A stretch of DNA of 64,000 bases, from contig DHKB01000011.1 in assembly GCA_002407045.1 (NCBI GenBank), forward strand, positions 6,906-70,905, given 5' to 3'. The notes beneath the pieces are model-generated. The model saw nothing but the letters and a program-made list of their open reading frames with translations, was not told where the DNA came from and searched no databases. This document shows positions 25,638 through 58,420 of the stretch, one piece after another. The DNA is from Candidatus Bruticola papionis. Its GTDB lineage: Bacteria; Vulcanimicrobiota; Xenobia; Xenobiales; Xenobiaceae. A program made the position numbers and the translations under genes. The number at the start of each line of letters is the position of its first letter. The first letter of the stretch is position 1.

Positions 25638-26939
25638 ATGGAAATTCGTCCAACTATGAGCGCTCCTACTTCGCAGATTTACACCAGTGCGAAGTCCGCT
25701 CCTACCCAGGCCCCCGTTGAGAAGCAGCCCGAAGAAACCTTCGTCGCTTCCTCTAACAACGGTCCTGTCAACTTAATCATCACCAACAGCGACAAAGCTA
25801 AGTTGGAAGAGATGCGCGCTTCTATTCTCGCTCAGAACCCCGAGAACCAAGTAACCGCCGAGCTTCCTTTGGTAAACGGCTTTGCTGTAACCGTCAACCC
25901 TTCCGCCGACGGTACCCTTCTTCCCAACTTGGCTAAAGCCAACGAAGAAGGCAACAGAATTTTCATGGATGCCCAGATTGGCATTCCTAAAAACGAGATG
26001 GTGGAGCTCGAGGACACTTTCCGTCCTTTGATGGATAATGCCAACGTCACTTTAGGCGTAGACAAACTCCACGATCAGGGTATCACCGGTAAGGGCGTAA
26101 CCGTATGCGTTATCGACACCGGTATTGCTCAGCACCCCGACTTCGAAGGTCGTATCGTTGGCTTCAAAGATATGGTCAACGGCCGCACCGAGCCCTATGA
26201 CGATCAGGGCCACGGCACTCACTGCACCGGTATCTGCGCCGGTAGCGGTAAGACCTCCAAGGGCAAATACACCGGCGTAGCTCCCGAAGCCAATATCGTC
26301 GGCGTAAAAGTTTTGGACCGCAACGGTTCCGGTTCTCTCTCCAACGTTATCAAAGGCGTACAATGGGCTGTTGAGAACAAAGATAAATTAGACATCGACG
26401 TCATCAGCATGTCTTTGGGCGGCTACGTTTCCCAGAGCTACAAAGATGACCCCGTAGTACAAGCTGTTGAAGCCGCTCACGCTGCTGGTATCAGCTGCGT
26501 AGTAGCCGCCGGTAACGAAGGCCCCGGCTCCGGCACCATCGGTTCTCCCGGTAACGCTCCTCACGCCATCACCGTAGGCGCTTTGGACGACAAGGGCACC
26601 GAAGATCGTTCCGACGACGATTTGGCTTACTTCTCCAGCCGTGGTCCCAGCCGCATCGACAAGCTCGAGAAACCCGACATCTTAGCTCCTGGCGTAGACA
26701 TCACCGCTGCTTCCCACAAGGGTAAAGGTTATGTAACTATGTCTGGTACCTCCATGGCCACTCCTTTCGCCGCCGGCGTAGACGTGCTCATGCACCAGGT
26801 AAAACCCAACATCAGCCCCGATCAGGTCAAAGAGATCATGATGAAGAATGCTGATGCTCTCGAAGGCGTAAGCAAATTCGAGCAAGGTAAAGGCGTTATC
26901 GATCCTCAAGAGAACATCGAGTTCTTGCTTGGTAAGTAA
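25638..26939 (+). CDS. Subtilisin-like serine protease (S8) with an N-terminal propeptide-like region
   Basis: Catalytic triad motifs VCVIDTGI, HGTHCTG and GTSMATP. Confidence 0.9.
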   Translation: MEIRPTMSAPTSQIYTSAKSAPTQAPVEKQPEETFVASSNNGPVNLIITNSDKAKLEEMRASILAQNPENQVTAELPLVNGFAVTVNPSADGTLLPNLAKANEEGNRIFMDAQIGIPKNEMVELEDTFRPLMDNANVTLGVDKLHDQGITGKGVTVCVIDTGIAQHPDFEGRIVGFKDMVNGRTEPYDDQGHGTHCTGICAGSGKTSKGKYTGVAPEANIVGVKVLDRNGSGSLSNVIKGVQWAVENKDKLDIDVISMSLGGYVSQSYKDDPVVQAVEAAHAAGISCVVAAGNEGPGSGTIGSPGNAPHAITVGALDDKGTEDRSDDDLAYFSSRGPSRIDKLEKPDILAPGVDITAASHKGKGYVTMSGTSMATPFAAGVDVLMHQVKPNISPDQVKEIMMKNADALEGVSKFEQGKGVIDPQENIEFLLGK

Positions 26940-44257: not shown

Positions 44258-45199
44258 TTAAATGTTTTCTAAACACTCCTTTATTTTAAGGCCTATAGCT
44301 TGGGCGACTGGTGGTGGAAATGCATTACCTATCATGCGGCAAGCGGCCGTTTTTTTATGGCCGAAAGTCCAGGTATCGGGAAAACCTTGCAGCCGAGCCA
44401 TCATGCGACTAGTTAAGCGCGGCATACCCTCAAAATCGGGTTCAGGCGCATTGTTAGCTATACCCAATCCATCCACTCCCAATTCTGCCCAAGCTTTGCG
44501 GGAACGTACTGGCCCCAGATCCGGTCCTCCATGTTTTTTTGATCCACCAACTAAAGTTGGAGCCACTTTATCAGCCTTTTTTGCCCAAGCTTTGGCTCCA
44601 TTCCAGCCACGCTCAGCCATTAAATCTACTAAACAATTGCCTACAGTTTGCGCTTGACTTCTGTCGCCATTAGGATAAGAAAAACATCCTTGCTCACCTT
44701 CAGCTATACCTACAATAACTACCCTGGGCCTAAGTTGCGGGACTCCAAAATCAGAAGCATTTAATAATTTTATTTGTACATCGTAACCTAAATTTTCAAT
44801 AGAATCCAAAATATAATGGCGATATTCAGTAAAGCCACTTTCCAAAAAGCCTTTAACATTTTCCAGCATAACAGCCCTAGGCTTCATTTCCCTAATTAAA
44901 CGAATAGCCTCAGGAAAAAGGTCGCGCTCGTCATTTTGTCCCAATTGCTTGCCAGCTACGGAAAATGGTGGACAAGGTACTCCACCAGCCAAAAGATCCA
45001 CCCCTTGAAAACCGCAACCACTGAAATGGCGAACATCTTCACATATTACATTCCATTCCGGACGGTTTTTCTTTAAAACTTGGCAATATTCACTTTCATA
45101 TTCCACTAAAGCAATGTGAAAAAAACCTGCCAAAGCCAATCCCAAGGCCTGTCCGCCAGCTCCGGCGCAAATTTCTACACAAGTTAAAGGCTTTAGCAA
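44258..45199 (-). CDS. dcm: DNA (cytosine-5)-methyltransferase with no adjacent restriction gene
   Basis: C5-MTase motifs are in order: I EICAGAGG, IV GGVPCPPFS, VI MLENVKGF, VIII QLRPRVV, X GNAFPPPV. TTG start. Confidence 0.88.
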   Translation of the reverse strand: MLKPLTCVEICAGAGGQALGLALAGFFHIALVEYESEYCQVLKKNRPEWNVICEDVRHFSGCGFQGVDLLAGGVPCPPFSVAGKQLGQNDERDLFPEAIRLIREMKPRAVMLENVKGFLESGFTEYRHYILDSIENLGYDVQIKLLNASDFGVPQLRPRVVIVGIAEGEQGCFSYPNGDRSQAQTVGNCLVDLMAERGWNGAKAWAKKADKVAPTLVGGSKKHGGPDLGPVRSRKAWAELGVDGLGIANNAPEPDFEGMPRLTSRMMARLQGFPDTWTFGHKKTAACRMIGNAFPPPVAQAIGLKIKECLENI

Positions 45200-45317: not shown

Positions 45318-45394
45318 TGGTGGACGAGAACGGACTCGAACCGCCGACCCCCTGCTTGTAAGGCAGGTGCTCTAACCAACTGAGCTACTCGTCC
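45318..45394 (-). tRNA. tRNA-Val (anticodon TAC), CCA encoded
   Basis: Hand-folded cloverleaf: acceptor GGACGAG/CTCGTCC, D arm GCTC/GAGC, anticodon arm CCTGC-CTTACAA-GCAGG, T loop TTCGAGT. Length 77 nt. Confidence 0.9.
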
Positions 45395-45487
45395 AAAAAA
45401 AAGAGAAGCTTCTCAGTAAACGCTGTTTAACTAAATCAGCCTCTCATTCTATTTAACCGCCTTCCCTATGAAGGACAGTGTTTTAAG

Positions 45488-45564
45488 TGGTAGCCCGGAC
45501 GGGAATCGAACCCGTGATCTCCGGCTTGAAAGGCCAGCGTCCTAAACCGCTAGACCACCGGGCC
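45488..45564 (-). tRNA. tRNA-Glu (anticodon TTC), CCA encoded
   Basis: Hand-folded: acceptor GGCCCGG/CCGGGCT (G1-U72), anticodon arm CTGGC-CTTTCAA-GCCGG, T arm ACGGG-TTCGATT-CCCGT. Length 77 nt. Confidence 0.88.
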
Positions 45565-45596
45565 ATGTACACTTTTTCTGAACACCGAGGGGGTCT

Positions 45597-45672
45597 TGGT
45601 GGGCCCACCTGGATTCGAACCAGGGACCAATTAGTTATGAGCCAACTGCTCTAACCGCTGAGCTATGGGCCC
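45597..45672 (-). tRNA. tRNA with CAT anticodon (elongator Met or lysidine-modified Ile2), CCA encoded
   Basis: Hand-folded: acceptor GGGCCCA/TGGGCCC, anticodon loop CTCATAA, T arm CCTGG-TTCGAAT-CCAGG. It lacks initiator features (no C1-A72, no triple G-C in the anticodon stem). Confidence 0.85.
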
Positions 45673-45823: not shown

Positions 45824-47119
45824 CTAAAAATTAATATAAAGCTGAGCGCTTTGTAGTGCCGACAAATGGTTTTCTAAGCCGAAATAAGTTTCACAAGCGC
45901 GGGAAATTTGTTTAAGCTTATAGCAACGCTTCTGAGCTACAAAAACATAAAAGCGCCATAAACTGCGATGCTTGTCACGTAACACGTTAACTTCCGGCAA
46001 GTGCAAAGAAGCTAGTGAGCGCGGCTCTTCTGGCCCTATCTTTACCAAAACTTCAGCTTCTTTTAATTGCATATTAGCTGAAGGGCAGTAGACAATAAGT
46101 TCTCCGGGCTCAAGTCCAAGCTCAGTAGTAAGTTTTTCTTCAGCTTCTTTGCGCAATTCAGCTTTGTTATGAAAGCGATCTACCAGCTGAGCTTCTTTTT
46201 CATAGCCAATGCGCCTAGTTAAAACGTAAGCGCGTTTATAAATCTTGCGCGAACTGAAAGCTTTTAATACTCTGGCTACTAAAGGATCATCGCCAAAGTG
46301 CCACTCAATATAAGCTAAAAGACGCTCATCACCCAAAGGTAAAATGTCTTTAAGCTTTAAGCCAAGCTCTAGAGCGCGTTCTACAATTCTGGAAATCATA
46401 GCCCCAGAAGCAGTCTTGGTATGATGAAAGAAAACGCGTTCAGTCAAAAAGTAGCGTAAACGCAATAAGTTAATAACTTCGGAAACTAGATCTTCTCTAA
46501 CTACGCCATTTTTCTGGCAGTCTAGATATAAATGGCTGCCATCGGTACGTAAGCTGCGTATAATGCGTTTGTCATATTTTTGCGAAAGGCCGCAAAAGAA
46601 AGCGTCGCGAGCCAAATAATCTAAAAGATCGGCACAAAACATGCCGCTAATAAGTTCACTTTGCCAAGCTTTATCAGCTTGGCCGCAGAGAATATTTTTT
46701 ACAGGCTCAGCTATATTCAGCTTATGCAATACTTTACCTAATTCGGTGCGCTTATTAAAAAATAGCTCAAAACGCTCCGGTGAATCGTGGCGACTGAAAA
46801 TACGCCGCTCGTCTTCTACAGTATGGCCAAAGGGAATATGGCCTATATCATGCAAAAGAGCAGCCGCACCCACAGCCAGCTTTTCGGAACCGCTTATCTT
46901 GGTACCAAACTCTTCCAAAATTTTTAAAAGAGTAAGGGCAAGATGACAAGTACCTAAGCTATGCTCAAAGCGAGTGTGAACTGCTCCAGGATAAACAAGA
47001 GAAGCTGTACCTAATTGCTTTATGCCTCGAAGCCTTTGCATTTGGGCTGTATCTATAAGCTCAATTAGCTCATCAGGCAGAAAAATATCTTCGTGTACAG
47101 GATCTCTAAATATTTTCAA
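45824..47119 (-). CDS. SAMHD1-like HD-domain dNTP triphosphohydrolase
   Basis: KIFRDPVHEDIFL...IDTAQMQRLRGIKQLG...HTRFEHSLGT...LLHDIGHIPFGH closely mirrors the SAMHD1/EF1143-type dNTPase N-terminus and HD motif. The TTG start lies 3 nt after the stop of the upstream acidic gene. Confidence 0.8.
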   Translation of the reverse strand: MKIFRDPVHEDIFLPDELIELIDTAQMQRLRGIKQLGTASLVYPGAVHTRFEHSLGTCHLALTLLKILEEFGTKISGSEKLAVGAAALLHDIGHIPFGHTVEDERRIFSRHDSPERFELFFNKRTELGKVLHKLNIAEPVKNILCGQADKAWQSELISGMFCADLLDYLARDAFFCGLSQKYDKRIIRSLRTDGSHLYLDCQKNGVVREDLVSEVINLLRLRYFLTERVFFHHTKTASGAMISRIVERALELGLKLKDILPLGDERLLAYIEWHFGDDPLVARVLKAFSSRKIYKRAYVLTRRIGYEKEAQLVDRFHNKAELRKEAEEKLTTELGLEPGELIVYCPSANMQLKEAEVLVKIGPEEPRSLASLHLPEVNVLRDKHRSLWRFYVFVAQKRCYKLKQISRACETYFGLENHLSALQSAQLYINF

Positions 47120-47122
47120 AGC

Positions 47123-47602
47123 TTATTCTTCGTCTTCTCCGTCATCTTCTTCGCTGAGTTCACCAGAATAGACGGACACTTCACGGATCATGCAATCTAA
47201 CTGGGCCGCACTAAGCTGGCTGACTGGACAAGCAGCTTGTAAGATAACATATTCACAACCGTCGCCCTTGCTAATCATTAAGCGGCTATAAATAAGATTC
47301 TGGTCGCAGAAGCGCAATAATTCAGCAGGATCCAAATCTTCAGTGTATTCGCCAATTTCGGCTTCCACTACTACAGCTTCAGCTTCATGGTACATAGCGT
47401 CGTCGATATCGACCATGAAAACGTCTACTTCAGGCTGATCATCCTGATAAACGCGGAAAACATTTTCTTCCGGAATCCATTCGGCTTCCATGTGCTCATC
47501 ATGATACTTAGCGTAGACAATGAGCTCATCCATTAAATTATTAAGATATTCTGGGGCCTCTAAAGACTCTTCTTCAGGATTTACAGCTTCAGGATCGGTC
47601 AT
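47123..47602 (-). CDS. Highly acidic 159-aa protein (YbjN/secretion-chaperone-like or DNA-mimic-like; function unknown)
   Basis: ATG at 47600-47602 with an AGGAG RBS. By my count it has about 45 Asp/Glu against 6 Lys/Arg and ends in EEDDGEDEE. It appears translationally coupled to the HD gene. Confidence 0.7.
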   Translation of the reverse strand: MTDPEAVNPEEESLEAPEYLNNLMDELIVYAKYHDEHMEAEWIPEENVFRVYQDDQPEVDVFMVDIDDAMYHEAEAVVVEAEIGEYTEDLDPAELLRFCDQNLIYSRLMISKGDGCEYVILQAACPVSQLSAAQLDCMIREVSVYSGELSEEDDGEDEE

Positions 47603-47821: not shown

Positions 47822-48901
47822 TTACTTGTCGAGACCCTGAGGGGCGAAGTCGTTTTCAGCAGTCAAACGTACCGCTTCTTTGGTAATATCGCCGATATTG
47901 CCAAAGTGTAAGTCGGTCATTTGTTCAAGCTGCTTCTGAGGAACCTGATAAACGCTGAATTTATCGGGATCGAAGCCGGAAATGCCTAAAGTGTGATCTC
48001 TTTCAATAATGTCTTTCTGAGAAAGTACAAAGGAAGCGCTCTTTAAGTTGCCGGTTTTCTCGTCAGCCCAAACTACAGTTTTGAAGAACTGCATAGGAAT
48101 CTGCACGGGCTTCTTCATGGCTCCGTTATTGGTGAACTCAGGATCGTCTTTAGAGAAGATGGGGCCGGTGATTACGGTCATCTTCTGGCTACCGCCAGTG
48201 GCGCTGTCAAGGACATGGTTTTCCAAGTTTAACCATTCTTTTTGGTTTAAACCGGCATGCTGCAAGGTAGCGTTGCAATAGCTAAAAGTATCGTTATTAG
48301 CTTGCTTGGCATCTTTACCCCAGCAAGGATCTAAGCGGCGCACCATGTGGCCCTTATCGATATCATTGTTCCTGTAAGCTTCGTTACCCAACTGACATTC
48401 GCGGGGGATACGACCATCAAGTTGCCATTTGCCACTGCGGGGCAAGTCTTGGTGAGTAGCACCATCGATATTAGAAATGGTATAGAAGCACTGTTTGCGC
48501 TCACCATTCATAACGATGGAGAAGTGAGTATAGGGTAAAACATACTCGCCAGGCTTGTCGGTACGCATAGCCACTTTGTCTTTAATGGAACTGCCCAACT
48601 CGGGAAGAGGAAGCTCTTTGCCTAAGAAAGAGCTGTCATAACCGGCGCGATTGCGATACATGTTGACGCCGTCGCCTTGGACAGTGATGGGGCCCTCAGC
48701 CTTTTGAGCTTGAGCACTGGCGTGGCTCTTGAAAAGTCTGCCGGCGCTGGCAAAGGCTTGCTCGTTAGCGAAGTCTCTGTTGTCGTCATGGACGAACACA
48801 TCCTTACTGCTTCCTTGGAAGCCTTCGGGACGGCTGACAGAATTTTCAATCATCTGAGGATTGTTAAATAACGAGCTGCTAGAGATACTGTTAATTCCCA
48901 T
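47822..48901 (-). CDS. DNA/RNA non-specific endonuclease (Endonuclease NS / Serratia NucA family), paralog 1, no signal peptide
   Basis: DKGHMVRRLDPCWG (DRGH-type catalytic His) and NATLQHAGLNQKEWLNLEN (metal-binding Asn block). I set the start at MGINSIS (ATG 48899-48901, GGAG 9 nt upstream) by homology with the other paralogs. The track ORF extends to 49018. Confidence 0.85.
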   Translation of the reverse strand: MGINSISSSSLFNNPQMIENSVSRPEGFQGSSKDVFVHDDNRDFANEQAFASAGRLFKSHASAQAQKAEGPITVQGDGVNMYRNRAGYDSSFLGKELPLPELGSSIKDKVAMRTDKPGEYVLPYTHFSIVMNGERKQCFYTISNIDGATHQDLPRSGKWQLDGRIPRECQLGNEAYRNNDIDKGHMVRRLDPCWGKDAKQANNDTFSYCNATLQHAGLNQKEWLNLENHVLDSATGGSQKMTVITGPIFSKDDPEFTNNGAMKKPVQIPMQFFKTVVWADEKTGNLKSASFVLSQKDIIERDHTLGISGFDPDKFSVYQVPQKQLEQMTDLHFGNIGDITKEAVRLTAENDFAPQGLDK

Positions 48902-49213
48902 TTTTATCTGCTCCATTACCGAAGCCTGCTTCGCCTTAAAGCAGGCTAAATTCCTGATTATAAATGTCTTACATAGACAAAATATCTTCAGGCGTGACAT
49001 GCTCCTTAAGCTCAGCAAAATTTGCTTAACTTAAGGCTTCTGAGATATTGACGAACCGCGCCTCCAAAACTTGAAAGCACAAGCTCTCTCTTAGTAGGTG
49101 ATGTCCCACCTACATGCTGCTCAGCTTCGGCACTCCACTGTATGTAACTATACAAAGAAACACGCCGAGGCCAAGTAACATTTTACATAATCCCTCCCTC
49201 CCCTTTCTCCTAG

Positions 49214-49256
49214 ATATTAGCAGTCAATTAGGCAAAAATATTCCTTTTTTGTGAAC
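49214..49256 (-). promoter_or_regulatory. Degenerate copy of the conserved upstream element, about 310 nt upstream of paralog 1
   Basis: ATATTAGCAGTCAATTAGGCAAAAATATTCCTTTTTTGTGAAC aligns with the elements at 51732, 53042 and 54474. Confidence 0.35.
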
Positions 49257-49271
49257 TTTTAGTTAACGTAT

Positions 49272-49315
49272 AAAAAAAATGAGCCGTCTGCTGCAAAATA
49301 TTTTTACAGCGCGGC
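49272..49315 (-). terminator. Terminator of nuclease paralog 2
   Basis: GCCGTCTGCTG (49283-49293) pairs with CAGCGCGGC (49307-49315) with a 2-nt bulge, followed on the minus strand by a T8 run. Confidence 0.6.
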
Positions 49316-49355
49316 CCAACTATATTTACCTAATATCTAGCCGAAATTGAGCATT

Positions 49356-50447
49356 TTAGCTGAGTTTAGGAGCGTAATTGTTGTCAGCGCTTAAGCACAT
49401 AGCGGTTGTGGTAATATCGCCGATATTGCCAAAGTGCAAATCGGTAAGGCGCTCGACTTCTTTCTGCGGCACTTGGTAAATTTTAAATTCACCGGGATCG
49501 AAGCCTTTGCCCTTATTCTTCTTAGCTTTAAAAAGAGAACCGTCGTTATTGATAATATCTTCCTGTGAGAGAATAAAGGAAGCACTCTTTAAAGTACCTT
49601 TTTCATTCCAAACTACAGTTTTGAAGAACTTCAAGGGAATTTGGGTAGCTTCTTTCATAGTCCCCTTGTTATCGAACTTAGGATCATCATCAGCGAAAAT
49701 AGGGCCAGTAATTACAGTCATTTTTTGACCGGAACCGCGAGCAGAATTTAAAACGTGATCTTCCAAACGCAGCCACTCTTTTTTATTGAGGCCGCCATGC
49801 TGTAAAGCAGAGTTGCAATAGCTGAAAGTATCTTCACTAGCCAATTTGGCATTTTGGCCCCAACATGGATCTAAGCGGCGCACCATATGGCCACGATCTA
49901 TGCCATTGCTATTATAAGCTTCATCGCCAAGCTGATATTGGCGAGGAATACGACCATCTAAAGTCCAGGCACCTTCACGTTTTACGCTGCGAGAAGCTCT
50001 GCCATCAATATTGCAAATGGCATAGAAGCATTGCTTGCGCTCTTTATTCATTACTACTGAATAGTTGGTGTAAGTAAGCTCACACTCACCGGGTTTGTCA
50101 GTGCGCATGGCTACTTTATTTTGAATAGAAGAGCCTAAGCCGGGCAAAGGAAGTTCTACGCCCAAGAAGGACTTGTCGTAACCATTACGCCCTTCAAACA
50201 TGCTAACCGGCTCACCTTGCACAGAAACCAAAGAAGAAGCCGAATTGGTTTGTTGAGCTTCGCGGCCGCAGCTCTGGAAAAGACGACCGGCCTTAGCGAA
50301 CTCTTGCTCTTTAGCAAATTGAGCGCTTTCGTCACGAACGAAAACATCCTTACCTGTACCCTGAAAACCTTCAGGACGGCTGATGCTATTCTCAGAAACC
50401 TGAGTGTTAATATACAAAGAATTGCCGGAAATGCTACCTATTCCCAC
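49356..50447 (-). CDS. DNA/RNA non-specific endonuclease, paralog 2
   Basis: DRGHMVRRLDPCWG and NSALQHGGLNKKEWLRLED. The homologous start is GTG at 50445-50447 (GGAG-N9-GTG, as in the other paralogs). An in-frame ATG at 50462 is also possible. Confidence 0.85.
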   Translation of the reverse strand: MGIGSISGNSLYINTQVSENSISRPEGFQGTGKDVFVRDESAQFAKEQEFAKAGRLFQSCGREAQQTNSASSLVSVQGEPVSMFEGRNGYDKSFLGVELPLPGLGSSIQNKVAMRTDKPGECELTYTNYSVVMNKERKQCFYAICNIDGRASRSVKREGAWTLDGRIPRQYQLGDEAYNSNGIDRGHMVRRLDPCWGQNAKLASEDTFSYCNSALQHGGLNKKEWLRLEDHVLNSARGSGQKMTVITGPIFADDDPKFDNKGTMKEATQIPLKFFKTVVWNEKGTLKSASFILSQEDIINNDGSLFKAKKNKGKGFDPGEFKIYQVPQKEVERLTDLHFGNIGDITTTAMCLSADNNYAPKLS

Positions 50448-50513
50448 TGAAAATGGCTCCATAATCGTTCTCCCCTCCCTTTAATATTTATTACAAAAAA
50501 AGTCTCCACTTTT

Positions 50514-50547
50514 AGAAAAAGCTGCTCGACTCACAAAATCGAGCAGC
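50514..50547 (-). terminator. Terminator of nuclease paralog 3
   Basis: GCTGCTCGA (50521-50529) pairs perfectly with TCGAGCAGC (50539-50547), followed on the minus strand by TTTTTCT. Confidence 0.8.
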
Positions 50548-50571
50548 TTTCTACTTAGCTAAGACAAAATG

Positions 50572-51681
50572 CTAGCTTAACTTAGGAGCGTAATCGTTCT
50601 CAGCGGTCAAGCGCATAGGCTTTTCGGTGATGTCACCAATATTGCCAAAGTGCAAATCGGTCATTTGCTCGAGCTGCTTCTGAGGCACCTGGTATACGCT
50701 GAAGCGGCCAGGATCGACGCCCTTGCTCTTGAAGAGGGAGCGATCTTTATTGATGATGTCTTCCTGGGAAAGTACGAAAGAGGCGCTCTTGAGCTTACCG
50801 CCATCGTTCCAGACCACAGTCTTGAAGAACTTCATAGGGATCTGGGTAGCTTCTTTCATTCTGCCCTTGTTGTCAAACTTAGGATCGTTCTCAGAGAAGA
50901 TCGGGCCAGTAATTACGGTAAGCTTCTGTTTCTCTTTACCAGTAGTGGCGCTGTCCAAAACGTGGTTCTCTAAGCAGAGCCATTCTTTCTGGTTCAAACC
51001 ACCGTGTTGCAAGGTGGCATTGCAATAGCTGAAAGTATCACGGCTGGCGCGTAAAGGATCGTCGCCCCAGCAAGGATCTAAGCGGCGCACCATGTGGCCC
51101 TTATCGATATTGTTGCCGCCATAAGCTTCGTTGCCCAACTGATATTCACGAGGGATACGACCGTCGATAGTCCAGTTGCCATCACGCTTTACTTTTTGGT
51201 GGCTGTTGCCGTCGATATTGCAAATAGCGTAGAAACACTGTTTGCGCTCTTTATTCATTACTACGGAGTAGTTGGTATAAGTGAGCTCGCTCTTACCAGG
51301 CTCATCGGTACGCATAGCCACTTTATCTTTAATAGAATCGCCCAAACCAGGCAAAGGAAGCTCTACGCCTAAGAAAGACTTGTCGTAGCCATTGCGGCCT
51401 TCAAACATGTTGACGCTCTCGATATCGACGCCGGAAGCGGCAGACATGATGTTGGTTTGCTGAGTCTCTTCAGGATTGGCTTGAGGCTGAGCCTCGCGCT
51501 GACAGCTTTGGAAAAGGCGACCGGCCTTAGCAAAATCCTGCTCTTTGACAAACTGAGCGTTATCATCGTGTACAAATACGTCTTTGCCAGTACCCTGGAA
51601 ACCTTCAGGACGACGAATAGAGCTCTCAGAGATTTGAGTGTTAGTATATAAAGAACTACCAGAAATACTTCCGATACCCAT
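50572..51681 (-). CDS. DNA/RNA non-specific endonuclease, paralog 3
   Basis: DKGHMVRRLDPCWG and NATLQHGGLNQKEWLCLEN. ATG at 51679-51681 (MGIGSIS). The track begins at a TTG 9 nt upstream. Confidence 0.88.
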   Translation of the reverse strand: MGIGSISGSSLYTNTQISESSIRRPEGFQGTGKDVFVHDDNAQFVKEQDFAKAGRLFQSCQREAQPQANPEETQQTNIMSAASGVDIESVNMFEGRNGYDKSFLGVELPLPGLGDSIKDKVAMRTDEPGKSELTYTNYSVVMNKERKQCFYAICNIDGNSHQKVKRDGNWTIDGRIPREYQLGNEAYGGNNIDKGHMVRRLDPCWGDDPLRASRDTFSYCNATLQHGGLNQKEWLCLENHVLDSATTGKEKQKLTVITGPIFSENDPKFDNKGRMKEATQIPMKFFKTVVWNDGGKLKSASFVLSQEDIINKDRSLFKSKGVDPGRFSVYQVPQKQLEQMTDLHFGNIGDITEKPMRLTAENDYAPKLS

Positions 51682-51731
51682 TGTGAACAACCCCTAGTTT
51701 TCTCCCCACCCCAGACCTTGTTTACCAGTAA

Positions 51732-51776
51732 ATACTACAGAATTTAAAATAGTATTTGTGCACAAAATTGTAACAA
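51732..51776 (-). promoter_or_regulatory. Conserved ~45-nt upstream element (putative promoter) of paralog 3
   Basis: Minus strand: TTGTTACAATTTTGTGCACAAATACTATTTTAAATTCTGTAGTAT. The TTGTTACA and TAGTAT boxes are shared with the elements at 53042, 54474 and 55714. Confidence 0.45.
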
Positions 51777-51843
51777 GCTAGTCAAATTTCCATTTAAAAC
51801 AGTATTTTTCAAGGTTGACGCTTCTACTTAAGTACTAATTTAT

Positions 51844-51885
51844 AAAAAAAGCGCCTTGCTCTTATTCATTTGAGAGCAAAAACGC
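51844..51885 (-). terminator. Terminator of nuclease paralog 4
   Basis: TTGCTCT (51856-51862) pairs with AGAGCAA (51873-51879) plus outer GCG/CGC pairs, followed on the minus strand by a T7 run. Confidence 0.7.
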
Positions 51886-51908
51886 TTTTCCTCTAGACAC
51901 TCAATAAG

Positions 51909-52991
51909 CTACTTATCTAAGCCCACAGGAGCATAATTATTTTCTGCAGTCAGACGCACGGCTTTTTTGCAAGTATCGCCTATATTGCCAAAATGCAAAT
52001 CGGTAAGACGCTCGACCTCTTTTTGAGGTACTTGATAGACCTCGAAGCGATCGGGCTCGAAGCCGCCCTTAAGCTTAATAGTGTCATCTCCCTTAATAAT
52101 ATCTTCTTGGGACAAGATGAAAGAAGCGCTCTTTAAATTGCCAGTTTTTTCGTCAGCCCAAACGACGGTTTTAAAGAATTTCATAGGAATCTGGGCCGGT
52201 TCTTTCATTTTGCCATTGTTATCAAACCAAGGATCGTTCTCGGAGAAGATAGGGCCAGTAATCACACTCATCTTCTGACCGTTAGCAGAATTAAGCACAT
52301 GATCTTCTAAAGCGAGCCATTCGTCTTGGTTTAAACCGCCATGTTGTAAAGAAGCGTTGCAATAGCTGAAAGTGTCGCGGCTAGCTAATTCGGCATTACT
52401 ACCCCAGCAAGGGTCTAAACGGCGTACCATGTGACCTTTGTCGATATTGTTACGCTTGTAAGCTTCGTCGCCCAACTGGTATTCACGAGGAATACGTCCA
52501 TCTAAAGTCCAGTTGCCGGAACGCTTGACGGCGCGCTGGCTGTTGCCGTCAATATTGCAAATAGCGTAGAAGCACTGCTTGCGATCTTTATTCATTACTA
52601 CAGAGTAGTTGGTGTAAGTAAGCTCACATTCGCCAGGCTTATCGGTACGCATGGCCACTTTGTCTTTAATAGAAGCGCCTAATTGAGGTAAAGGAAGCTC
52701 GGTACCTAAGAAGTTTTTGTCATAGCCATTGCGGCCGTTGAACATGCTGACTTTGTCACCTTGAATTGTAACTACGCCAGAAGTGGAATCGGCTTGTTGA
52801 GATTCGCGATTTACACTTTGGAAAAGACGACCAGCTTTAGCAAAATCCTGGTCTTTAACAAACTGAGCATTGTCATCATGTACAAATACATCTTTGCCAG
52901 TGCCCTGGAAACCTTCAGGGCGGCTGATAGAACTCTCGGGAACTTGATTATTTATATATAAAGAGTTGCCAGAAATACTTCCGATACCCAC
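51909..52991 (-). CDS. DNA/RNA non-specific endonuclease, paralog 4
   Basis: DKGHMVRRLDPCWG and NASLQHGGLNQDEWLALED. GTG start (GGAG-N9-GTG). Confidence 0.88.
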   Translation of the reverse strand: MGIGSISGNSLYINNQVPESSISRPEGFQGTGKDVFVHDDNAQFVKDQDFAKAGRLFQSVNRESQQADSTSGVVTIQGDKVSMFNGRNGYDKNFLGTELPLPQLGASIKDKVAMRTDKPGECELTYTNYSVVMNKDRKQCFYAICNIDGNSQRAVKRSGNWTLDGRIPREYQLGDEAYKRNNIDKGHMVRRLDPCWGSNAELASRDTFSYCNASLQHGGLNQDEWLALEDHVLNSANGQKMSVITGPIFSENDPWFDNNGKMKEPAQIPMKFFKTVVWADEKTGNLKSASFILSQEDIIKGDDTIKLKGGFEPDRFEVYQVPQKEVERLTDLHFGNIGDTCKKAVRLTAENNYAPVGLDK

Positions 52992-53041
52992 AGTAGACTA
53001 CTCCGTTTTTCTCCCCACCCCAAAACAATCTAACTCAATAG

Positions 53042-53086
53042 ATACTACACAATTTAAATGGCTGGTTAGGCACAAAAATGTAACAA
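53042..53086 (-). promoter_or_regulatory. Conserved upstream element of paralog 4
   Basis: Minus strand: TTGTTACATTTTTGTGCCTAACCAGCCATTTAAATTGTGTAGTAT. Confidence 0.45.
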
Positions 53087-53100
53087 AATTGACCGAAAAG

Positions 53101-53143
53101 AAAATAAAAGCGCTCCGGCCCACAAATTAAAAGCCGAAGCGCT
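53101..53143 (-). terminator. Terminator of nuclease paralog 5
   Basis: AGCGCTCCGGC (53109-53119) pairs with GCCGAAGCGCT (53133-53143) with one mismatch, followed on the minus strand by TTTTATTTT. Confidence 0.75.
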
Positions 53144-53190
53144 TTTTAAGTGTATCAGTTGCTATGCAACTTCACACTAAACAAGAATTA

Positions 53191-54324
53191 TTAGGACAAC
53201 TTGGGAGCGTAATCGTTCTCAGCGGTCAGACGCATAGGCTGCTCGGTGATGTCGCCAATATTACCAAAGTGGAGGTCGGTAAGACGCTCTACTTCTTTCT
53301 GAGGCACCTGGTAAACTTCGAAGCGATCGGGATCGAAGCCACCTTTAGCGCCCAAGGAACCGTCGCCATCGATAATGTCTTCCTGAGAAAGGATGAAGGA
53401 AGCGCTCTTGAGCTCTTTGCCTTCGGTCCAGACCACGGTCTTGAAGAATTTCATAGGAATCTGGGCCGGCTCCTTCATCTTGCCATGGTTATCGAAGGAA
53501 GGATCATCTTTGGAGAAGATGGGGCCGGTAATGACGGTCATCTTCTGACCTTTGGCAGAATTGAGAACGTGATCCTCAAGCTGGAGCCACTCTTTCTGGT
53601 TCAAGCCAGCGTGCTGCAAGGAAGAGTTGCAATAGCTAAAGGTGTCGTGACTAGCCAAGTCGGCGTTTTTGCCCCAACAAGGATCTAAGCGGCGAACCAT
53701 ATGACCTCTGTCGATACTGTTATCGACATAGGCTTCGTTGCCGAGCTGATATTCACGAGGAATACGACCATCTAAGGTCCAGCTGCCGGAACGTTTTACA
53801 GCGCGGTGAGTAGTACCATCGATATTGCAAATGGCATAGAAGCACTGCTTGCGCTCTTTGTTCATTACTACGGAGTAGTTGGTGTAAGTAAGCTCACACT
53901 CACCGGGCTTGTCGGTACGCATGGCCACTTTGTCTTTAATGGAGCTACCGAGCTGAGGTAAAGGAAGTTCGGTACCCAAGAAGGCTTTGTCGTAGCCATT
54001 GCGGCCTTCGAACATGCTTACACCGTCGGGCTTAACTTCACGGGGACCTTTAGGACCACGAGGGCCTCTGGGGCCGTTGGGACCTTGAGCACCGTCATTT
54101 CTGCGGCGGTTCTTTCTCCTGGTGATTTCGAAACTGTTGTCGTTTACGCTCTGGAAGAGGCGGCCAGCTTTAGCAAACTGCTGCTCTTTGGTGAGCTGAG
54201 CGTCGTCGTCATGGACGAATACGTCTTTGCCAGTGCCCTGGAAACCTTCAGGACGTTTGATAGAGCTCTCAGAAACCTGAGTGTTAGTATATAAAGAATT
54301 ACCAGAAATGCTTCCGATACCCAT
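53191..54324 (-). CDS. DNA/RNA non-specific endonuclease, paralog 5, with an Arg-rich and Gly-Pro-X linker insertion
   Basis: DRGHMVRRLDPCWG and NSSLQHAGLNQKEWLQLED. ATG at 54322-54324. Confidence 0.9.
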   Translation of the reverse strand: MGIGSISGNSLYTNTQVSESSIKRPEGFQGTGKDVFVHDDDAQLTKEQQFAKAGRLFQSVNDNSFEITRRKNRRRNDGAQGPNGPRGPRGPKGPREVKPDGVSMFEGRNGYDKAFLGTELPLPQLGSSIKDKVAMRTDKPGECELTYTNYSVVMNKERKQCFYAICNIDGTTHRAVKRSGSWTLDGRIPREYQLGNEAYVDNSIDRGHMVRRLDPCWGKNADLASHDTFSYCNSSLQHAGLNQKEWLQLEDHVLNSAKGQKMTVITGPIFSKDDPSFDNHGKMKEPAQIPMKFFKTVVWTEGKELKSASFILSQEDIIDGDGSLGAKGGFDPDRFEVYQVPQKEVERLTDLHFGNIGDITEQPMRLTAENDYAPKLS

Positions 54325-54473
54325 GTTTTACAATTCCTATCCCTTTAACTAGGCTTTGCAGAAAACTTTAGCAGTTACAAAAACTGACAAAATTTTCAAC
54401 GAATCGAGACAAGCCAGCTCTTATCCAAAATGCAGACAACAGATACGCTTGCTCAAAGACATTAACTAAACTG

Positions 54474-54518
54474 ATACTACAGAATTTAAAAGTCTAATTA
54501 GGCAAAAAATTGTTACAA
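54474..54518 (-). promoter_or_regulatory. Conserved upstream element of paralog 5 (leader about 150 nt)
   Basis: Minus strand: TTGTAACAATTTTTTGCCTAATTAGACTTTTAAATTCTGTAGTAT. Confidence 0.45.
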
Positions 54519-54537
54519 CTTAGCCAAAAAACTTTTT

Positions 54538-54579
54538 AAAAATAAAATGCGCTTCAAAACCAAAGCCTTTGAAGCGCAT
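54538..54579 (-). terminator. Terminator of nuclease paralog 6
   Basis: ATGCGCTTCAAA (54547-54558) pairs perfectly with TTTGAAGCGCAT (54568-54579), followed on the minus strand by TTTTATTTTT. Confidence 0.8.
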
Positions 54580-54611
54580 TCAACTCGCTATTTTATGTAT
54601 AAAAAGCTAAT

Positions 54612-55667
54612 TTATTTTAACTTGGGAGCGTAGTCGTTCTCAGCGGTCAAGCGCATAGGCTTCTCGGTAATGTCGCCGATATTGCCAAAGTGCAAGTCGG
54701 TGAGACGCTCGACTTCCTTCTGAGGCACCTGGTAAACTTCGAAGCGATCGGGATCGAAGCCGCCCTTAATACCCAAGGAACTATCGTTGTTGATGATATC
54801 TTCTTGAGAGAGGATGAAGGAAGCACTCTTGAGCTCTTTGCCATCATTCCAGACTACGGTCTTGAAGAATTTCATGGGGATCTGAGTAGGCTCATCCATC
54901 AAACCGTTGTTGTCGAACTTCGGATCGTCTTTGGAGAAGATGGGGCCGGTAATAACGGTCATTTTTTGGCCTTTAGCAGAACCGAGCACGTGGTCTTCAA
55001 GTTTGAGCCATTCTTTCTGGTTCAAGCCACCATGTTGCAAAGCGGCGTTGCAATAAGTGAAAGTGTCACGGCTGGCCAATTCGGGATCCTTACCCCAGCA
55101 AGGATCTAAACGGCGCACCATATGGCCCTTGTCAATATCGTTATCTTTGTAGGCTTCGTTGCCCAGCTGATACTCGCGAGGGATACGTCCATCGATAGAC
55201 CAGCTGCCGGAGCGTCTGACATTGCGATGGCTAGTGCCGTCAATATTGCAAATAGCGTAGAAGCACTGCTTGCGCTCTTTGTTCATAACGACAGAGAAGT
55301 TGGTATAGGTGAGTTCGCTCTCACCAGGCTTGTCAGTGCGCATAGCGACTTTGTCTTTAATGGAAGAACCGAGCTTAGGCAAAGGAAGTTCGGTGCCCAA
55401 GAATTTTTCGTCGTAACCATTGCGACCTTCGTACATGTTGACGCCTTCGATTTCGATTTCGGAAGCGGCGTTGACATGGCCAGCCTGAGTGCTCTGGAAG
55501 AGACGACCGGCTTTAGCGAATTGCTGTTCTTTGGTAAACTGAGAGCTTTCGTCGCGAACGAAGACATCTTTGCTAGTGCCTTGGAAACCTTCGGGACGCT
55601 TGACGTCGCTCTGCTGGATATTATTAAAGGCAGTAAAAGAACTGCTGGATATGCTACCTAAACCCAT
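54612..55667 (-). CDS. DNA/RNA non-specific endonuclease, paralog 6
   Basis: DKGHMVRRLDPCWG and NAALQHGGLNQKEWLKLED. ATG at 55665-55667. Confidence 0.9.
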   Translation of the reverse strand: MGLGSISSSSFTAFNNIQQSDVKRPEGFQGTSKDVFVRDESSQFTKEQQFAKAGRLFQSTQAGHVNAASEIEIEGVNMYEGRNGYDEKFLGTELPLPKLGSSIKDKVAMRTDKPGESELTYTNFSVVMNKERKQCFYAICNIDGTSHRNVRRSGSWSIDGRIPREYQLGNEAYKDNDIDKGHMVRRLDPCWGKDPELASRDTFTYCNAALQHGGLNQKEWLKLEDHVLGSAKGQKMTVITGPIFSKDDPKFDNNGLMDEPTQIPMKFFKTVVWNDGKELKSASFILSQEDIINNDSSLGIKGGFDPDRFEVYQVPQKEVERLTDLHFGNIGDITEKPMRLTAENDYAPKLK

Positions 55668-55713
55668 TTAGTTAAACCAACCTAGTTTTAGACATATTTC
55701 CCCCTTGCAGCTA

Positions 55714-55769
55714 TACTACACAATAAAAAGTATTTATTGTACAGAAACTACTTACAAAAATGTTAACAT
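55714..55769 (-). promoter_or_regulatory. Conserved upstream element of paralog 6 (about 10 nt longer)
   Basis: Minus strand: TGTTAACATTTTTGTAAGTAGTTTCTGTACAATAAATACTTTTTATTGTGTAGTAT. Confidence 0.4.
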
Positions 55770-55801
55770 GAGCCCAGAATCCTTTAAAATTAACTGTCCA
55801 T

Positions 55802-58420
55802 TCAATCGTTATGCCAGCTGGCTTTTTGAGCTGCTGGAGGCGCCTGATCCATTTTGACAGTAGCAGTTTTCTCCAAATTAGCTCTATTTTCTACCGCTGA
55901 ACTGTCCGCACTTTCTGCTTTGTCAGTTCCATTTAATCTATCGCTAAAGGGAGATGGCGAAGCCGCGCTATCAGCTTCTTTGAAAGCATTTTGCTCAGTT
56001 AAGTCGGGAATTTCTATATTTTTTAACTCTTGAGTATCTTTAGGAGAAACAACTTGCGCATTTGAAGAAGCAACGGGGCTAGGCTCAGGTTCGATGCCAT
56101 CAGAACTAGTAAGCTTATCAGCTCCTTTATTACCAAGACGCTTTGAGTAATAGTAGGAAGTTACCAAAAGAGCTACGCCCAAAACGAAGAAGAGCAGCAA
56201 CTTATAGCCGATAGGCAAATTTACAATGTCATAAGTAATTACTCTAAGCAAAGTAACACAAACGATAAAAATGCCACTGTTGGTGACATAACGATTTTTA
56301 AAGCGAATGCCACCCCAAAGGATAGCGGCCGCATAGAGCATCCACAGAACAGAAGTAATAGAATCTAAATGGCAAACTGCAGCAATGTTATGTCCTTCAA
56401 TATGAACTAAAGACCAGCCACTAAGCACAGCTCCAACTAGATAAATTTCAGATCCGTAAAGTACAAAAGCCGCTGCTAAAGCCAAAATAGTTAAAACGTG
56501 AGCTAAGAAGCCTATATTTACTATAGGAATAAATTCGGCGTAAGCACCTGTAACGCAACTGAGAATATTGATAGTCAAGCCGAATAAAGACAGAGCCAAA
56601 GCCAAATTGAAACCAATGGCAAAGGCGTTGCTTTTGGCCTTTTTGGCTTGAAGCATAGCTTGCAAAGCATAAATGGAGCAAACGGCCACTAAGCTAAAGC
56701 AGCTAAAAGCCCACCACTGCTGGCCATTTAAATTCAACACACGATCCAAAATGTCGGCTAATTCTCGGCCAAAATAAATATAAGCTAAGGTTATACCGGC
56801 CCAAAGGTTAAAATCTCTGTATTTTTCATCACCATTGTAATGTCTGAACATTAAGTAGCTAGATAACCAAGCAACAATAGAAACTCCGAAAATAATTATG
56901 GCCAGCTTATGAAGCTCTCGATCAGGAGTTAAGAAAAAGTCAAATTTGCCATTGAAGTCGGCCACTAACATAATGAAAAAGGCCAATACATTGTGCAGGC
57001 CGCTCCAGAAGAAAAGGCGTCGTTGTACTTCCGGCTTGGCAACTTTATTAAAAGCAATCCAAAGAATAATTAAACCGGCTGCAGAAAGAAAGGCCACCCT
57101 AGTTAGCGGCTCTTGGAAGCTGTAGGCAGAAAGGCCGACCACAAACAGGCCAGCGTTGACAAAAGCTCTGGCTAAAGTATTCATGTTTTCTGCACGCAAT
57201 TTAGCTAAACAGAATAAGGCTGCCGCAGCCACCATAAAAGCGCCAAAAGCCTGGCCTTCGCTGTAAATGCAATTGGCGCCTAAGGCCATCATGAGGTGAT
57301 TTATCCAAACGGAGGGTTGCTTGGTATCGTTTTCGTCTTGGCGGCGGAAATAATCATAAACCAAAACAATAAGCCAGATGGCCCCTAAAGCATAAGGGCT
57401 AAAAATTCGGTCGGCTTTTTCGAAAATGCCGGTACGGGTAGCAATAAAAAGCCAGGTTATAGCTAAATTGATACTAAAAAGCGAATTCCATTTTTGGCAA
57501 CGCACAGTACCGACTAAGCAAAAAAGAGCCAGAATAACTAAATAAACATCAAAAACATAAGTACTGTCGATAGAAGTTTGAATAAAAATTAAGTTGGCGT
57601 AACCAGCCAAAGCTCCCAGACAAATAACGGATCTGCGTTGGGCCCAATAAGCCAGTACATATGTGCCCAGTAAAATGAGCGAAGCTAAAGCCAAACTTAC
57701 GTAGTTGTCCCAAAGGTCAAAGTAAACGCTGCCAGCGTAAGTTATCATAATTGCCGAAGCTAGACCCAAACCTAAGAGAGTTTCGGAAAAGCCGCGCATA
57801 TTATCTTTAGGTAAAAGATAAAAGCCCAAACCAACCAGCACCGAGCTAAAAATGTAAACGGCGCCAACTTTCATAGCTGCAGTTAAAGCCAAAAATGGAG
57901 AGAGCCACTTTATAAAAAGGATGACAAAAACAATAATGGCTAAAGCGCCTAATTTATTAAAAAGGCTTCCTAAAAAGAATTGCTCTAGACTGTTTTCAGC
58001 GACGGCTTGGGAGGCAGCTATTTTGGATTTGGGTGCAGCTGTTTTGGGCGAATCTGGCCAAGCTTTGTGCATAGACGCATTCGCCGACGCTGAACCTGTA
58101 GTGAGCAAACTTGTAACAGTAGTAGGCTCGGCAGGCGATGTTTTTTCTTTAGCTAAGGATAATGCGGCTCTGTGGCTTTCTTCGACCGAATTAGTTACAG
58201 AACTAGTCGTCGCCGGTGCATTACCAAACTTATCTTGATCATCGTTGCCAACTTGGTGAACAGCTACCAGTCTTTCTAGACTAGCTTCAAGCCTCTCTAC
58301 ACGTTTTTTTAAGCTTTGGCAAGAGGCCATAGCTACAACAGAAAAGATAAATGGCAGGAAAAACATTCCTAAAGCCATGAGAACTAACACAATAAATTCC
58401 AACTCTGCGCCCTTCCCCAA
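55802..58420 (-). CDS. Large polytopic membrane protein, DUF2339-like
   Basis: 872 aa. Layout is an N-terminal TM, a short coiled coil (KKRVERLEASLERLVAV), a Ser/Thr/Ala linker, more than 20 hydrophobic segments, and an acidic Ser-rich C-terminal tail. The family name is tentative. Confidence 0.7.
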   Translation of the reverse strand: MGKGAELEFIVLVLMALGMFFLPFIFSVVAMASCQSLKKRVERLEASLERLVAVHQVGNDDQDKFGNAPATTSSVTNSVEESHRAALSLAKEKTSPAEPTTVTSLLTTGSASANASMHKAWPDSPKTAAPKSKIAASQAVAENSLEQFFLGSLFNKLGALAIIVFVILFIKWLSPFLALTAAMKVGAVYIFSSVLVGLGFYLLPKDNMRGFSETLLGLGLASAIMITYAGSVYFDLWDNYVSLALASLILLGTYVLAYWAQRRSVICLGALAGYANLIFIQTSIDSTYVFDVYLVILALFCLVGTVRCQKWNSLFSINLAITWLFIATRTGIFEKADRIFSPYALGAIWLIVLVYDYFRRQDENDTKQPSVWINHLMMALGANCIYSEGQAFGAFMVAAAALFCLAKLRAENMNTLARAFVNAGLFVVGLSAYSFQEPLTRVAFLSAAGLIILWIAFNKVAKPEVQRRLFFWSGLHNVLAFFIMLVADFNGKFDFFLTPDRELHKLAIIIFGVSIVAWLSSYLMFRHYNGDEKYRDFNLWAGITLAYIYFGRELADILDRVLNLNGQQWWAFSCFSLVAVCSIYALQAMLQAKKAKSNAFAIGFNLALALSLFGLTINILSCVTGAYAEFIPIVNIGFLAHVLTILALAAAFVLYGSEIYLVGAVLSGWSLVHIEGHNIAAVCHLDSITSVLWMLYAAAILWGGIRFKNRYVTNSGIFIVCVTLLRVITYDIVNLPIGYKLLLFFVLGVALLVTSYYYSKRLGNKGADKLTSSDGIEPEPSPVASSNAQVVSPKDTQELKNIEIPDLTEQNAFKEADSAASPSPFSDRLNGTDKAESADSSAVENRANLEKTATVKMDQAPPAAQKASWHND

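Follow-up and report, generated by a model that had tools for sequence, protein, structure and literature searches.

A conserved N-terminal extension on tandem signal-less Endonuclease_NS nucleases of Candidatus Bruticola papionis, possibly a pro-segment or docking segment

Our analysis of a 64,000-nucleotide stretch of the Candidatus Bruticola papionis contig DHKB01000011.1 (the window) uncovered an array of six tandem Endonuclease_NS (PF01223) paralogs, placed head-to-tail on the minus strand (47822-55667) and encoding proteins of 351-377 aa each. Every copy opens with a 59-residue segment, and that of copy 5 (54148-54324) is the subject of this report. Sequence analysis confirmed that the segment is a real, translated, selected and non-hydrophobic N-terminal module, and it appears to be a translated extension, specific to this lineage, at the N-terminus of a NucA/EndoG-type nuclease without a signal peptide. 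Tentatively, with a probability of roughly 0.36, we favor the view that the module is a regulatory pro-segment or a docking segment, specific to the lineage, on a nuclease that stays latent in the cytoplasm. In the libraries and literature searched we found no description of the extension; the nuclease family and its signal-less conflict-system relatives are already known. The features of the array are as follows.

54148-54324, minus strand: copy 5, N-terminal module (the element under study), with a disordered leader at residues 1-38 and then the start of a helix at 39-59
54022-54147, minus strand: copy 5, linker of 42 aa, basic, with the collagen-like run GAQGPNGPRGPRGPKGP
53191-54021, minus strand: copy 5, nuclease domain, stop codon included; Endonuclease_NS with a DRGH beta-beta-alpha-Me active site
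47822-48901, minus strand: copy 1; module 48725-48901, linker 48668-48724
49356-50447, minus strand: copy 2, GTG start; module 50271-50447, linker 50208-50270
50572-51681, minus strand: copy 3; module 51505-51681, linker 51415-51504
51909-52991, minus strand: copy 4, GTG start; module 52815-52991, linker 52752-52814
54612-55667, minus strand: copy 6; module 55491-55667, linker 55443-55490

Translation, conservation and anatomy of the module

The six intervals given for the module in the original prediction proved to be exactly the first 59 codons of each gene, with ATG or GTG as the first codon. An ATG five codons upstream of the GTG of copy 2 is an alternative start. A GGAG-type ribosome-binding site lies 10-13 nt upstream of the start in most copies, an in-frame stop precedes the ATG of copies 5 and 6 by 0-1 codons, and the gene calls of homologs in public data begin at the same residue. 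These observations argue against true starts farther downstream that would leave the segment untranslated. Synonymous-site variation is already seen in the first 10 codons.

In a six-way alignment, the whole proteins share 64-70% identity with copy 1, and 28 of the 59 module positions are invariant. The invariant residues are M1, G2, S5, I6, S7, S10, R24-G30 (RPEGFQG), K33-V37 (KDVFV), D39 and Q48, followed by F50, A51 and A53-F57 (F-A-x-A-G-R-L-F) and by S59. The linker, which occupies the 16-42 residues after the module, has no invariant column and varies in length between copies. Selection was measured among the six paralogs as the Nei-Gojobori ratio of nonsynonymous to synonymous substitution rates (dN/dS), which was low for the module (0.14) and the nuclease domain (0.09) and close to 1 for the linker (0.95). 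With a dS of about 1.3-1.9, synonymous sites are saturated and the copies are old; a dN/dS of 0.14 at dS >1 indicates that the conservation of the module reflects selection and not recent duplication. Between orthologs, module identity ranges over 47-100% versus 87-98% for the nuclease domain. The conservation claimed in the original prediction therefore stands with respect to the linker, with the correction that the module is not conserved above the catalytic domain. In some Bruticola paralogs (P0002 and P0012, for example), the RPEGFQG motif has decayed. One protein of the UBA11836 metagenome-assembled genome (P0005) joins the N-terminal 216 aa of copy 3 to the C-terminal part of copy 1 in what looks like an exact chimera, which indicates recombination, or assembly collapse, inside the array.

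A structure of copy 5 was predicted with AlphaFold2 (AF2) from a 67-sequence alignment, with a mean predicted local distance difference test score (pLDDT) of 81.9. Residues 1-38 are mostly below a pLDDT of 50 (1-21 and 26-34) and are predicted to be disordered, residues 40-72 form a helix (pLDDT about 80 at 41-60), residues 73-99 are a low-confidence linker, and the nuclease domain spans about 100-377 with a pLDDT >90. The leader of residues 1-38 is rich in Ser, Gly, Asn and Gln and carries the motifs MGIGSIS, RPEGFQG and KDVFVHD; 12-14 of the first 22 residues are S, T, N, Q or G and one is charged. An amphipathic helix begins at residues 39-59 (QQFAKAGRLFQS). Its FAKAGRLF segment makes an 11-residue amphipathic helix with a hydrophobic moment of 0.63-0.88 and a negative mean hydrophobicity, predicted to be of the protein-interface type and not a membrane anchor. 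The order along the protein is thus a polar disordered leader, a strand-like acidic motif (D-V/R-F/Y-V-x-D), the helix (F-x-x-A-G-x-L-F), the linker and the nuclease domain, with the extreme N-terminus conserved as M-x-I-x-x-I/L-S.

The module had been said to lack a counterpart in classical NucA enzymes, and it does lie outside their canonical fold. The Pfam Endonuclease_NS match begins at residues 119-141 in all six copies, AF2 gives disorder at 1-38 and then a helix, and Foldseek aligns only ~230-250 columns to EXOG and, at an E of about 1e-11, to CPS-6/EndoG and Serratia nuclease, which places the first ~100 residues outside the fold. Membership in Endonuclease_NS is clear (E of 1.4e-36 for copy 5 and scores of 126.7 and 147.9 bits against a cutoff of 23), even if sequence similarity to solved structures reaches only an E of about 1e-4. 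The active site D-K/R-G-H-M-V-R-R is invariant in all copies, and the nuclease domain is predicted to be catalytically intact.

Two further features of these proteins were observed. The linkers are of low complexity and often basic, with collagen-like GPRGPQ/GPNGPRGPRGPKGP runs in several (54022-54147; L019, L021, P0034 and P0038) and His/Lys-rich HKHKHK runs in others; such runs recur in separate lineages despite the neutral evolution of the linker among the six paralogs. The Cys pairs C161/C166 and C216/C232 (copy-5 numbering) were gained together in animal-associated Xenobia, and relatives do not have them. These cysteines might form disulfides or a metal site, and they bear on whether the enzyme lies outside the cytoplasm.

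Bruticola is placed by NCBI in Ca. Xenobia, phylum Vulcanimicrobiota (formerly Eremiobacterota, WPS-2 or UBP9). Loci nearly identical to the one in the window were found in human-gut metagenome-assembled genomes labelled “Riflebacteria” or “uncultured bacterium” and in Ca. Bruticola sp. The array holds 6 copies in the species group of the window, 4 in two Bruticola species and 2 in rumen or more distant relatives. For the phylum-wide comparison gene starts were corrected where needed, for example to a GTG in UBA6111-like genomes, from which the protein reads M-I-D-K-L-S-A. Many nucleases of Xenobia and the wider Vulcanimicrobiota retain three anchors: M-x-I/L-x-x-I/L-S/N at the extreme N-terminus, D-V/R-F/Y-V/T, and F/L-R/K-x-A/M-G/A-x-x-F/Y. 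RPEGFQG is restricted to animal-associated Xenobia. The N-terminal extension predates the array.

No model for the module was found in Pfam, NCBIfam or PADLOC. A hidden Markov model (HMM) of its 59 positions, built from 19 diverse modules, was searched against 1.84 billion representative proteins and matched only members or fragments of this nuclease family, with no fusion to another domain. Weak matches (P0099-P0105) were rejected as spurious, being repeat proteins matched in several short stretches; P0099 and P0105 contain recurring DVFVHDR units. A word-indexed profile search with the module returned one fragment only. Over ~0.5 Mb of DNA from Xenobia and other Vulcanimicrobiota, the HMM and a regular expression placed the motif on nucleases only, barring a few chance matches of the regular expression. 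The fusions to other domains that a modular trafficking domain would be expected to show were therefore not found. A shared trafficking or adaptor domain of the MIX, LXG, EAD-like or polymorphic-toxin kind was discarded, as there was no other C-terminal domain, homotypic partner copy or adjacent immunity gene. A myristoylation-type MG motif was rejected by inspection, as G2 is not conserved outside the genus and Ser does not stand at position 6.

Signal-less relatives and a proposed latent cytoplasmic nuclease

The search for a Sec signal asked for an n-region and, behind it, a hydrophobic h-region of 8-15 residues, all within the first ~35 residues. The six modules are polar in composition and have no hydrophobic h-region, and thus no Sec or lipoprotein signal of this kind. 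A Tat signal was not found either, as the module contains no RR and no hydrophobic stretch comes after the RR runs in the linker of copy 5. Other proteins of the window carry ordinary Sec or lipobox signals. The region ahead of the conserved R-x-G-Y-D-x-x-F-L-G domain start was then extracted from 66 relative loci in many phyla, and the low maximum Kyte-Doolittle values at the N-termini gave no evident Sec signal in any of the 66 nucleases inspected. Many relatives outside the Vulcanimicrobiota are ~600-700 aa long and join an N-terminal Trypsin_2 peptidase to Endonuclease_NS; Endonuclease_NS+TPR-S+Trypsin_2 and Exo_endo_phos+Endonuclease_NS architectures were also seen. The statement that the module replaces the signal peptide was therefore misleading, as 66 of 66 relatives have no evident Sec signal and many carry a trypsin-like peptidase instead. 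The nucleases of the window would thus belong to a clade in which Sec signals are not seen and would not be NucA enzymes that have lost one.

The array nucleases share the beta-beta-alpha-Me fold and the DRGH catalytic motif with classical NucA, Serratia nuclease and EndoG (PF01223). Those enzymes, however, start with a Sec signal or mitochondrial presequence, and for Anabaena NucA there is a separate inhibitor, NuiA; the array nucleases have neither a signal nor an inhibitor gene nearby. The fusion architectures of many relatives are those of the NucA-peptidase conflict system named “System 3” by Kaur, Burroughs, Iyer and Aravind (eLife 2020; PMC7159879), who propose that a proteolytic cascade activates or deploys NucA and who note multiple copies per operon. 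The array nucleases resemble System 3 in belonging to the same nuclease clade (~36-44% identity, with the shared R-x-G-Y-D-x-x-F-L-G start), in having no evident Sec signal, in joining an N-terminal non-nuclease part to the nuclease by a linker and in the several nuclease copies per locus. They differ in carrying a 59-aa motif string instead of a fused or adjacent trypsin, S8 or TPR-S, and no fused or adjacent trypsin-like or S8 peptidase was found at the array or at the scanned Xenobia and Vulcanimicrobiota neighbours. In the Vulcanimicrobiota, moreover, the gene was seen among housekeeping genes in the contexts examined, and its inheritance looks vertical within this one phylum. Members of the clade from Cytophagales (L052, L054, L061, L069, L071 and L081) have a different conserved N-terminal element, strand-like and of the form I-x-I/F-x-V/I-P-L-x-I-x-I/L, which in L081 lies between a putative N-terminal peptidase-like region and the nuclease.

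According to the model of a latent cytoplasmic nuclease, the extension would be a string of short linear motifs working as a pro-segment or docking segment. It would keep the non-specific nuclease latent in the cytoplasm, or pass it on to a partner acting in trans, up to its own removal or release. Cleavage by a protease in the exposed linker or leader would be the most probable step of release, and the tandem copies would be parallel latent effectors. We rank this model first because of the family context and because the motif is limited to this nuclease family. It is also favored by the purifying selection on the module next to a neutral linker, by the position of the module outside the canonical fold, by the relatives without Sec signals, with the many peptidase fusions of System 3, and by the protein-interface type of the helix. 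No conserved immunity-like or other neighbour of the nuclease was found across the 66 loci compared, so that a non-specific nuclease in the cytoplasm would need a built-in restraint. As the module occurs on no other family, a dedicated pro-segment also fits better than a general trafficking tag. An autoinhibitory pro-segment, which the original prediction had offered as its alternative to a secretion signal, may thus fit the family context somewhat better.

Latency by an N-terminal extension with proteolytic release is known from intracellular subtilisins. Proteolysis-gated latent effectors have been shown experimentally for other effector classes (PMC12642450). Both share with the array nucleases the idea of a toxic enzyme kept latent and set free by cleavage, here a hydrolase that has no signal and a short extension at its N-terminus; the enzyme class differs, and inhibition and cleavage are proposals for the array nucleases.

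Several observations weigh against this model. No homology was found by hhalign between the Vulcanimicrobiota extension and the pre-nuclease part of the trypsin-NucA fusions, and the AF2 confidence along the copy 5 monomer gives no sign that the leader docks on the nuclease (residues 1-38 with a pLDDT <50). A trypsin-like peptidase was not found in the 64-kb window, where the only S8 peptidase, a subtilase, lies 22 kb off. In the phylum, the loci examined have metabolic or housekeeping surroundings and are not defence islands, with GH31, GAF-BTAD, GCS2, arginase, E1 dehydrogenase, Metallophos_2 and amylase genes as neighbours. The divergence of the nuclease tracks that of neighbouring housekeeping genes, so that it looks vertically inherited, unlike typical conflict effectors. 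The strict conservation of the first residues and the six copies in gut lineages would be no less in keeping with an export signal of a digestive enzyme. The gene content of the window is that of an ordinary chromosome, with genes for tRNA synthetases, EF-G, glycolysis, DnaX and RecR, and PADLOC gave no match for the nuclease.

Export, tethering and other explanations

The features that bear on the alternatives are listed here.

47123-47602, minus strand: acidic protein of 159 aa, with a predicted fold like that of class-I chaperones of type III secretion systems (T3SS) or of YbjN
45824-47119, minus strand: HD+HD_assoc_2 (dGTPase-like) gene, directly 3' of the acidic gene
25638-26939, plus strand: Peptidase_S8 subtilase, 22 kb from the array

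A leader for non-Sec export or targeting is a serious competitor and only a little less probable than the favored model. The Ser-rich disordered N-terminus would be read by an export machine, either type III/flagellar-like or an unrecognised one specific to the phylum, the DVFV strand and the helix would form a chaperone-binding region, possibly for the adjacent acidic protein, and the nucleases, amplified in gut lineages, would act outside the cell in digestion or antagonism. The polar first 22 residues with their single charge are consistent with this, as is the extreme N-terminal motif kept in many nucleases of the phylum, including ones recovered only with corrected GTG starts. So is the bipartite layout, in which disorder gives way to strand, helix and flexible linker. 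Non-specific nucleases are usually extracytoplasmic, and no inhibitor gene lies nearby in the 66 loci. The rise in copy number through 2 and 4 to 6 in gut lineages and the paired Cys gains (C161/C166 and C216/C232) in the gut clade point the same way. The resemblance to a T3SS effector N-terminus is compositional only: its first ~20 residues are likewise disordered, Ser-rich and weakly charged and are followed by a strand and a helix. T3SS signals, however, do not share a conserved sequence from one substrate to the next, and further candidate substrates were not found here; the motif occurred on no other protein among the 1.84 billion representatives or in the ~0.5 Mb of phylum DNA.

The acidic protein encoded beside the array is one argument for a chaperone, and it had been put forward as a candidate partner of the module. 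It has no significant family match in Pfam, NCBIfam or PADLOC. Its AF2 model (pLDDT 82.5; alpha-beta4-alpha-beta2-alpha) matches the Synechococcus YbjN-like structure 2plg and YbjN/AmyR as well as the T3SS class-I chaperones VecA, SycT, ExsC, SycH, AvrPphF-ORF1, CesT, SpcU and SycE, with TM-scores of about 0.4-0.58 and E of 7e-5 to 1e-2. The chaperone-like fold thus held up, but it is also the fold of YbjN-like proteins in bacteria without a T3SS (2plg and 6vu7). The conserved linkage to the nuclease did not hold up, as the acidic gene is linked to the HD gene. It always lies a few nucleotides 5' of the HD+HD_assoc_2 gene, and the acidic protein is 97-98% identical across genera whose nucleases share 65-87%. 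In five more distant Xenobia loci (L083 and L095-L098) the [TPR-SEC-C][acidic-HD] block is intact with no nuclease within a few kb on either side, and in UBA6111 the nuclease is on a different contig from acidic-HD. The acidic and HD genes look like a conserved two-gene unit in Xenobia, and the nuclease array and a DUF2339 gene look to have been inserted into the [TPR-SEC-C][acidic-HD] block in a Bruticola-like lineage. The synteny with the HD gene and the loci without a nuclease nearby speak against a conserved link of the acidic protein to the nuclease, and a linked cognate chaperone of the kind that goes with T3SS effectors was not found.

A machine for such export was not seen either. No secretion-system or apparatus gene, T3SS and flagellar genes included, was found in the 64-kb window or in the up to 10 kb of DNA that flanks related genes. 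Vulcanimicrobium alpinus, which alone in the phylum has been cultured, is a diderm with type IV pili but without flagella or a flagellin gene (PMC9758169), and our search for literature on flagella or secretion systems in Xenobia returned nothing usable. Many relatives are, in addition, predicted intracellular conflict-system nucleases. The S8 subtilase could be a second hydrolase exported in this way, as it also has no Sec signal and carries a polar, S/T/A/P/Q-rich N-extension of 42 aa (MEIRPTMSAPTSQIYTSAKSAPTQAPVEKQPEETFVASS) before a region that resembles a propeptide by eye. Its N-terminus was nevertheless rejected as a second copy of the leader: the two look alike by eye, but the HMM gave no match and the resemblance was not significant in shuffling (p 0.05-0.8). 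In its most specific form, the export explanation would have the Vulcanimicrobiota use an unrecognised Sec-independent route for signal-less hydrolases that carry an M-x-I-x-x-I/L-S...D-V-F-V...F-x-x-A-G-x-x-F leader, with the acidic protein as pilot in gut Xenobia and the six nucleases, perhaps with the S8 subtilase, as substrates. We regard this version as quite improbable.

The module could instead be a non-inhibitory docking, tethering or oligomerisation segment, from which active nuclease domains swing on flexible, often basic linkers in a role in localisation or assembly. This is less probable than export. The linkers of 16-42 aa are neutral and in several lineages basic, His/Lys-rich or collagen-like, as a tether would allow; the short amphipathic helix with its conserved small residues (A-G) is typical of helix-in-groove interfaces; and EndoG and Serratia-type nucleases are dimers (PDB matches). 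No partner, conserved gene neighbour (66 loci) or homotypic copy of the module on another protein was found, however, and tethering leaves the tolerance of a free non-specific nuclease in the cytoplasm unexplained. That the module has no function of its own, and owes its conservation to duplication or gene conversion of recent date, to an RNA or DNA element or to a wrongly called start, is hardly credible even if the P0005 chimera of copies 3 and 1 points to recombination within the array, as dS is >1 with a dN/dS of 0.14, synonymous variation is present from the first 10 codons, the motifs are conserved in many nucleases of the phylum and in-frame stops lie directly 5' of starts.

Surroundings of the array and significance

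Other observations were made around the array. Copies 3, 4 and 6 have a common upstream motif, (A/T)TTTTGT followed by TGTAGTAT (~51690-51790, 53000-53100 and 55680-55780), that may be a promoter or operator common to the paralogs. Directly 5' of the array, a minus-strand gene (55802-58420) encodes a DUF2339 membrane protein with ~20 transmembrane (TM) segments that evolves much faster than its neighbours (46% identity versus 81-88%). It was rejected as a conserved partner or exporter, as it adjoins nucleases only in Bruticola-like and rumen clades. In another Xenobia lineage (L023, 91-6457, plus strand; L022, 918-2567, plus strand), the nuclease follows up to four tandem membrane proteins of ~540 aa with 6-8 TM segments, which gave no Pfam match and bear no relation to DUF2339. 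A Dcm-type C5 cytosine methyltransferase gene (44258-45199, minus strand) beside tRNA genes (45318-45672) is strain-variable: end remnants are found in L003 and L004, its first 134 residues are matched in L005, and it is absent from the Bruticola loci.

The module is at present a conserved uncharacterised extension, with a small chance of revealing an export route. Non-specific nucleases endanger their own cell, which makes the restraint or routing of one without a signal a real question of mechanism. The module offers a compact, sequence-defined handle on this question, with three short motifs and a dispensable linker, in a barely studied phylum and close to the experimentally untested NucA-peptidase systems. 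As a pro-segment it would carry the principle of proteolysis-gated effectors over to NucA nucleases that lack a fused protease, and as an export leader it would suggest a new route of secretion in a lineage associated with the gut.

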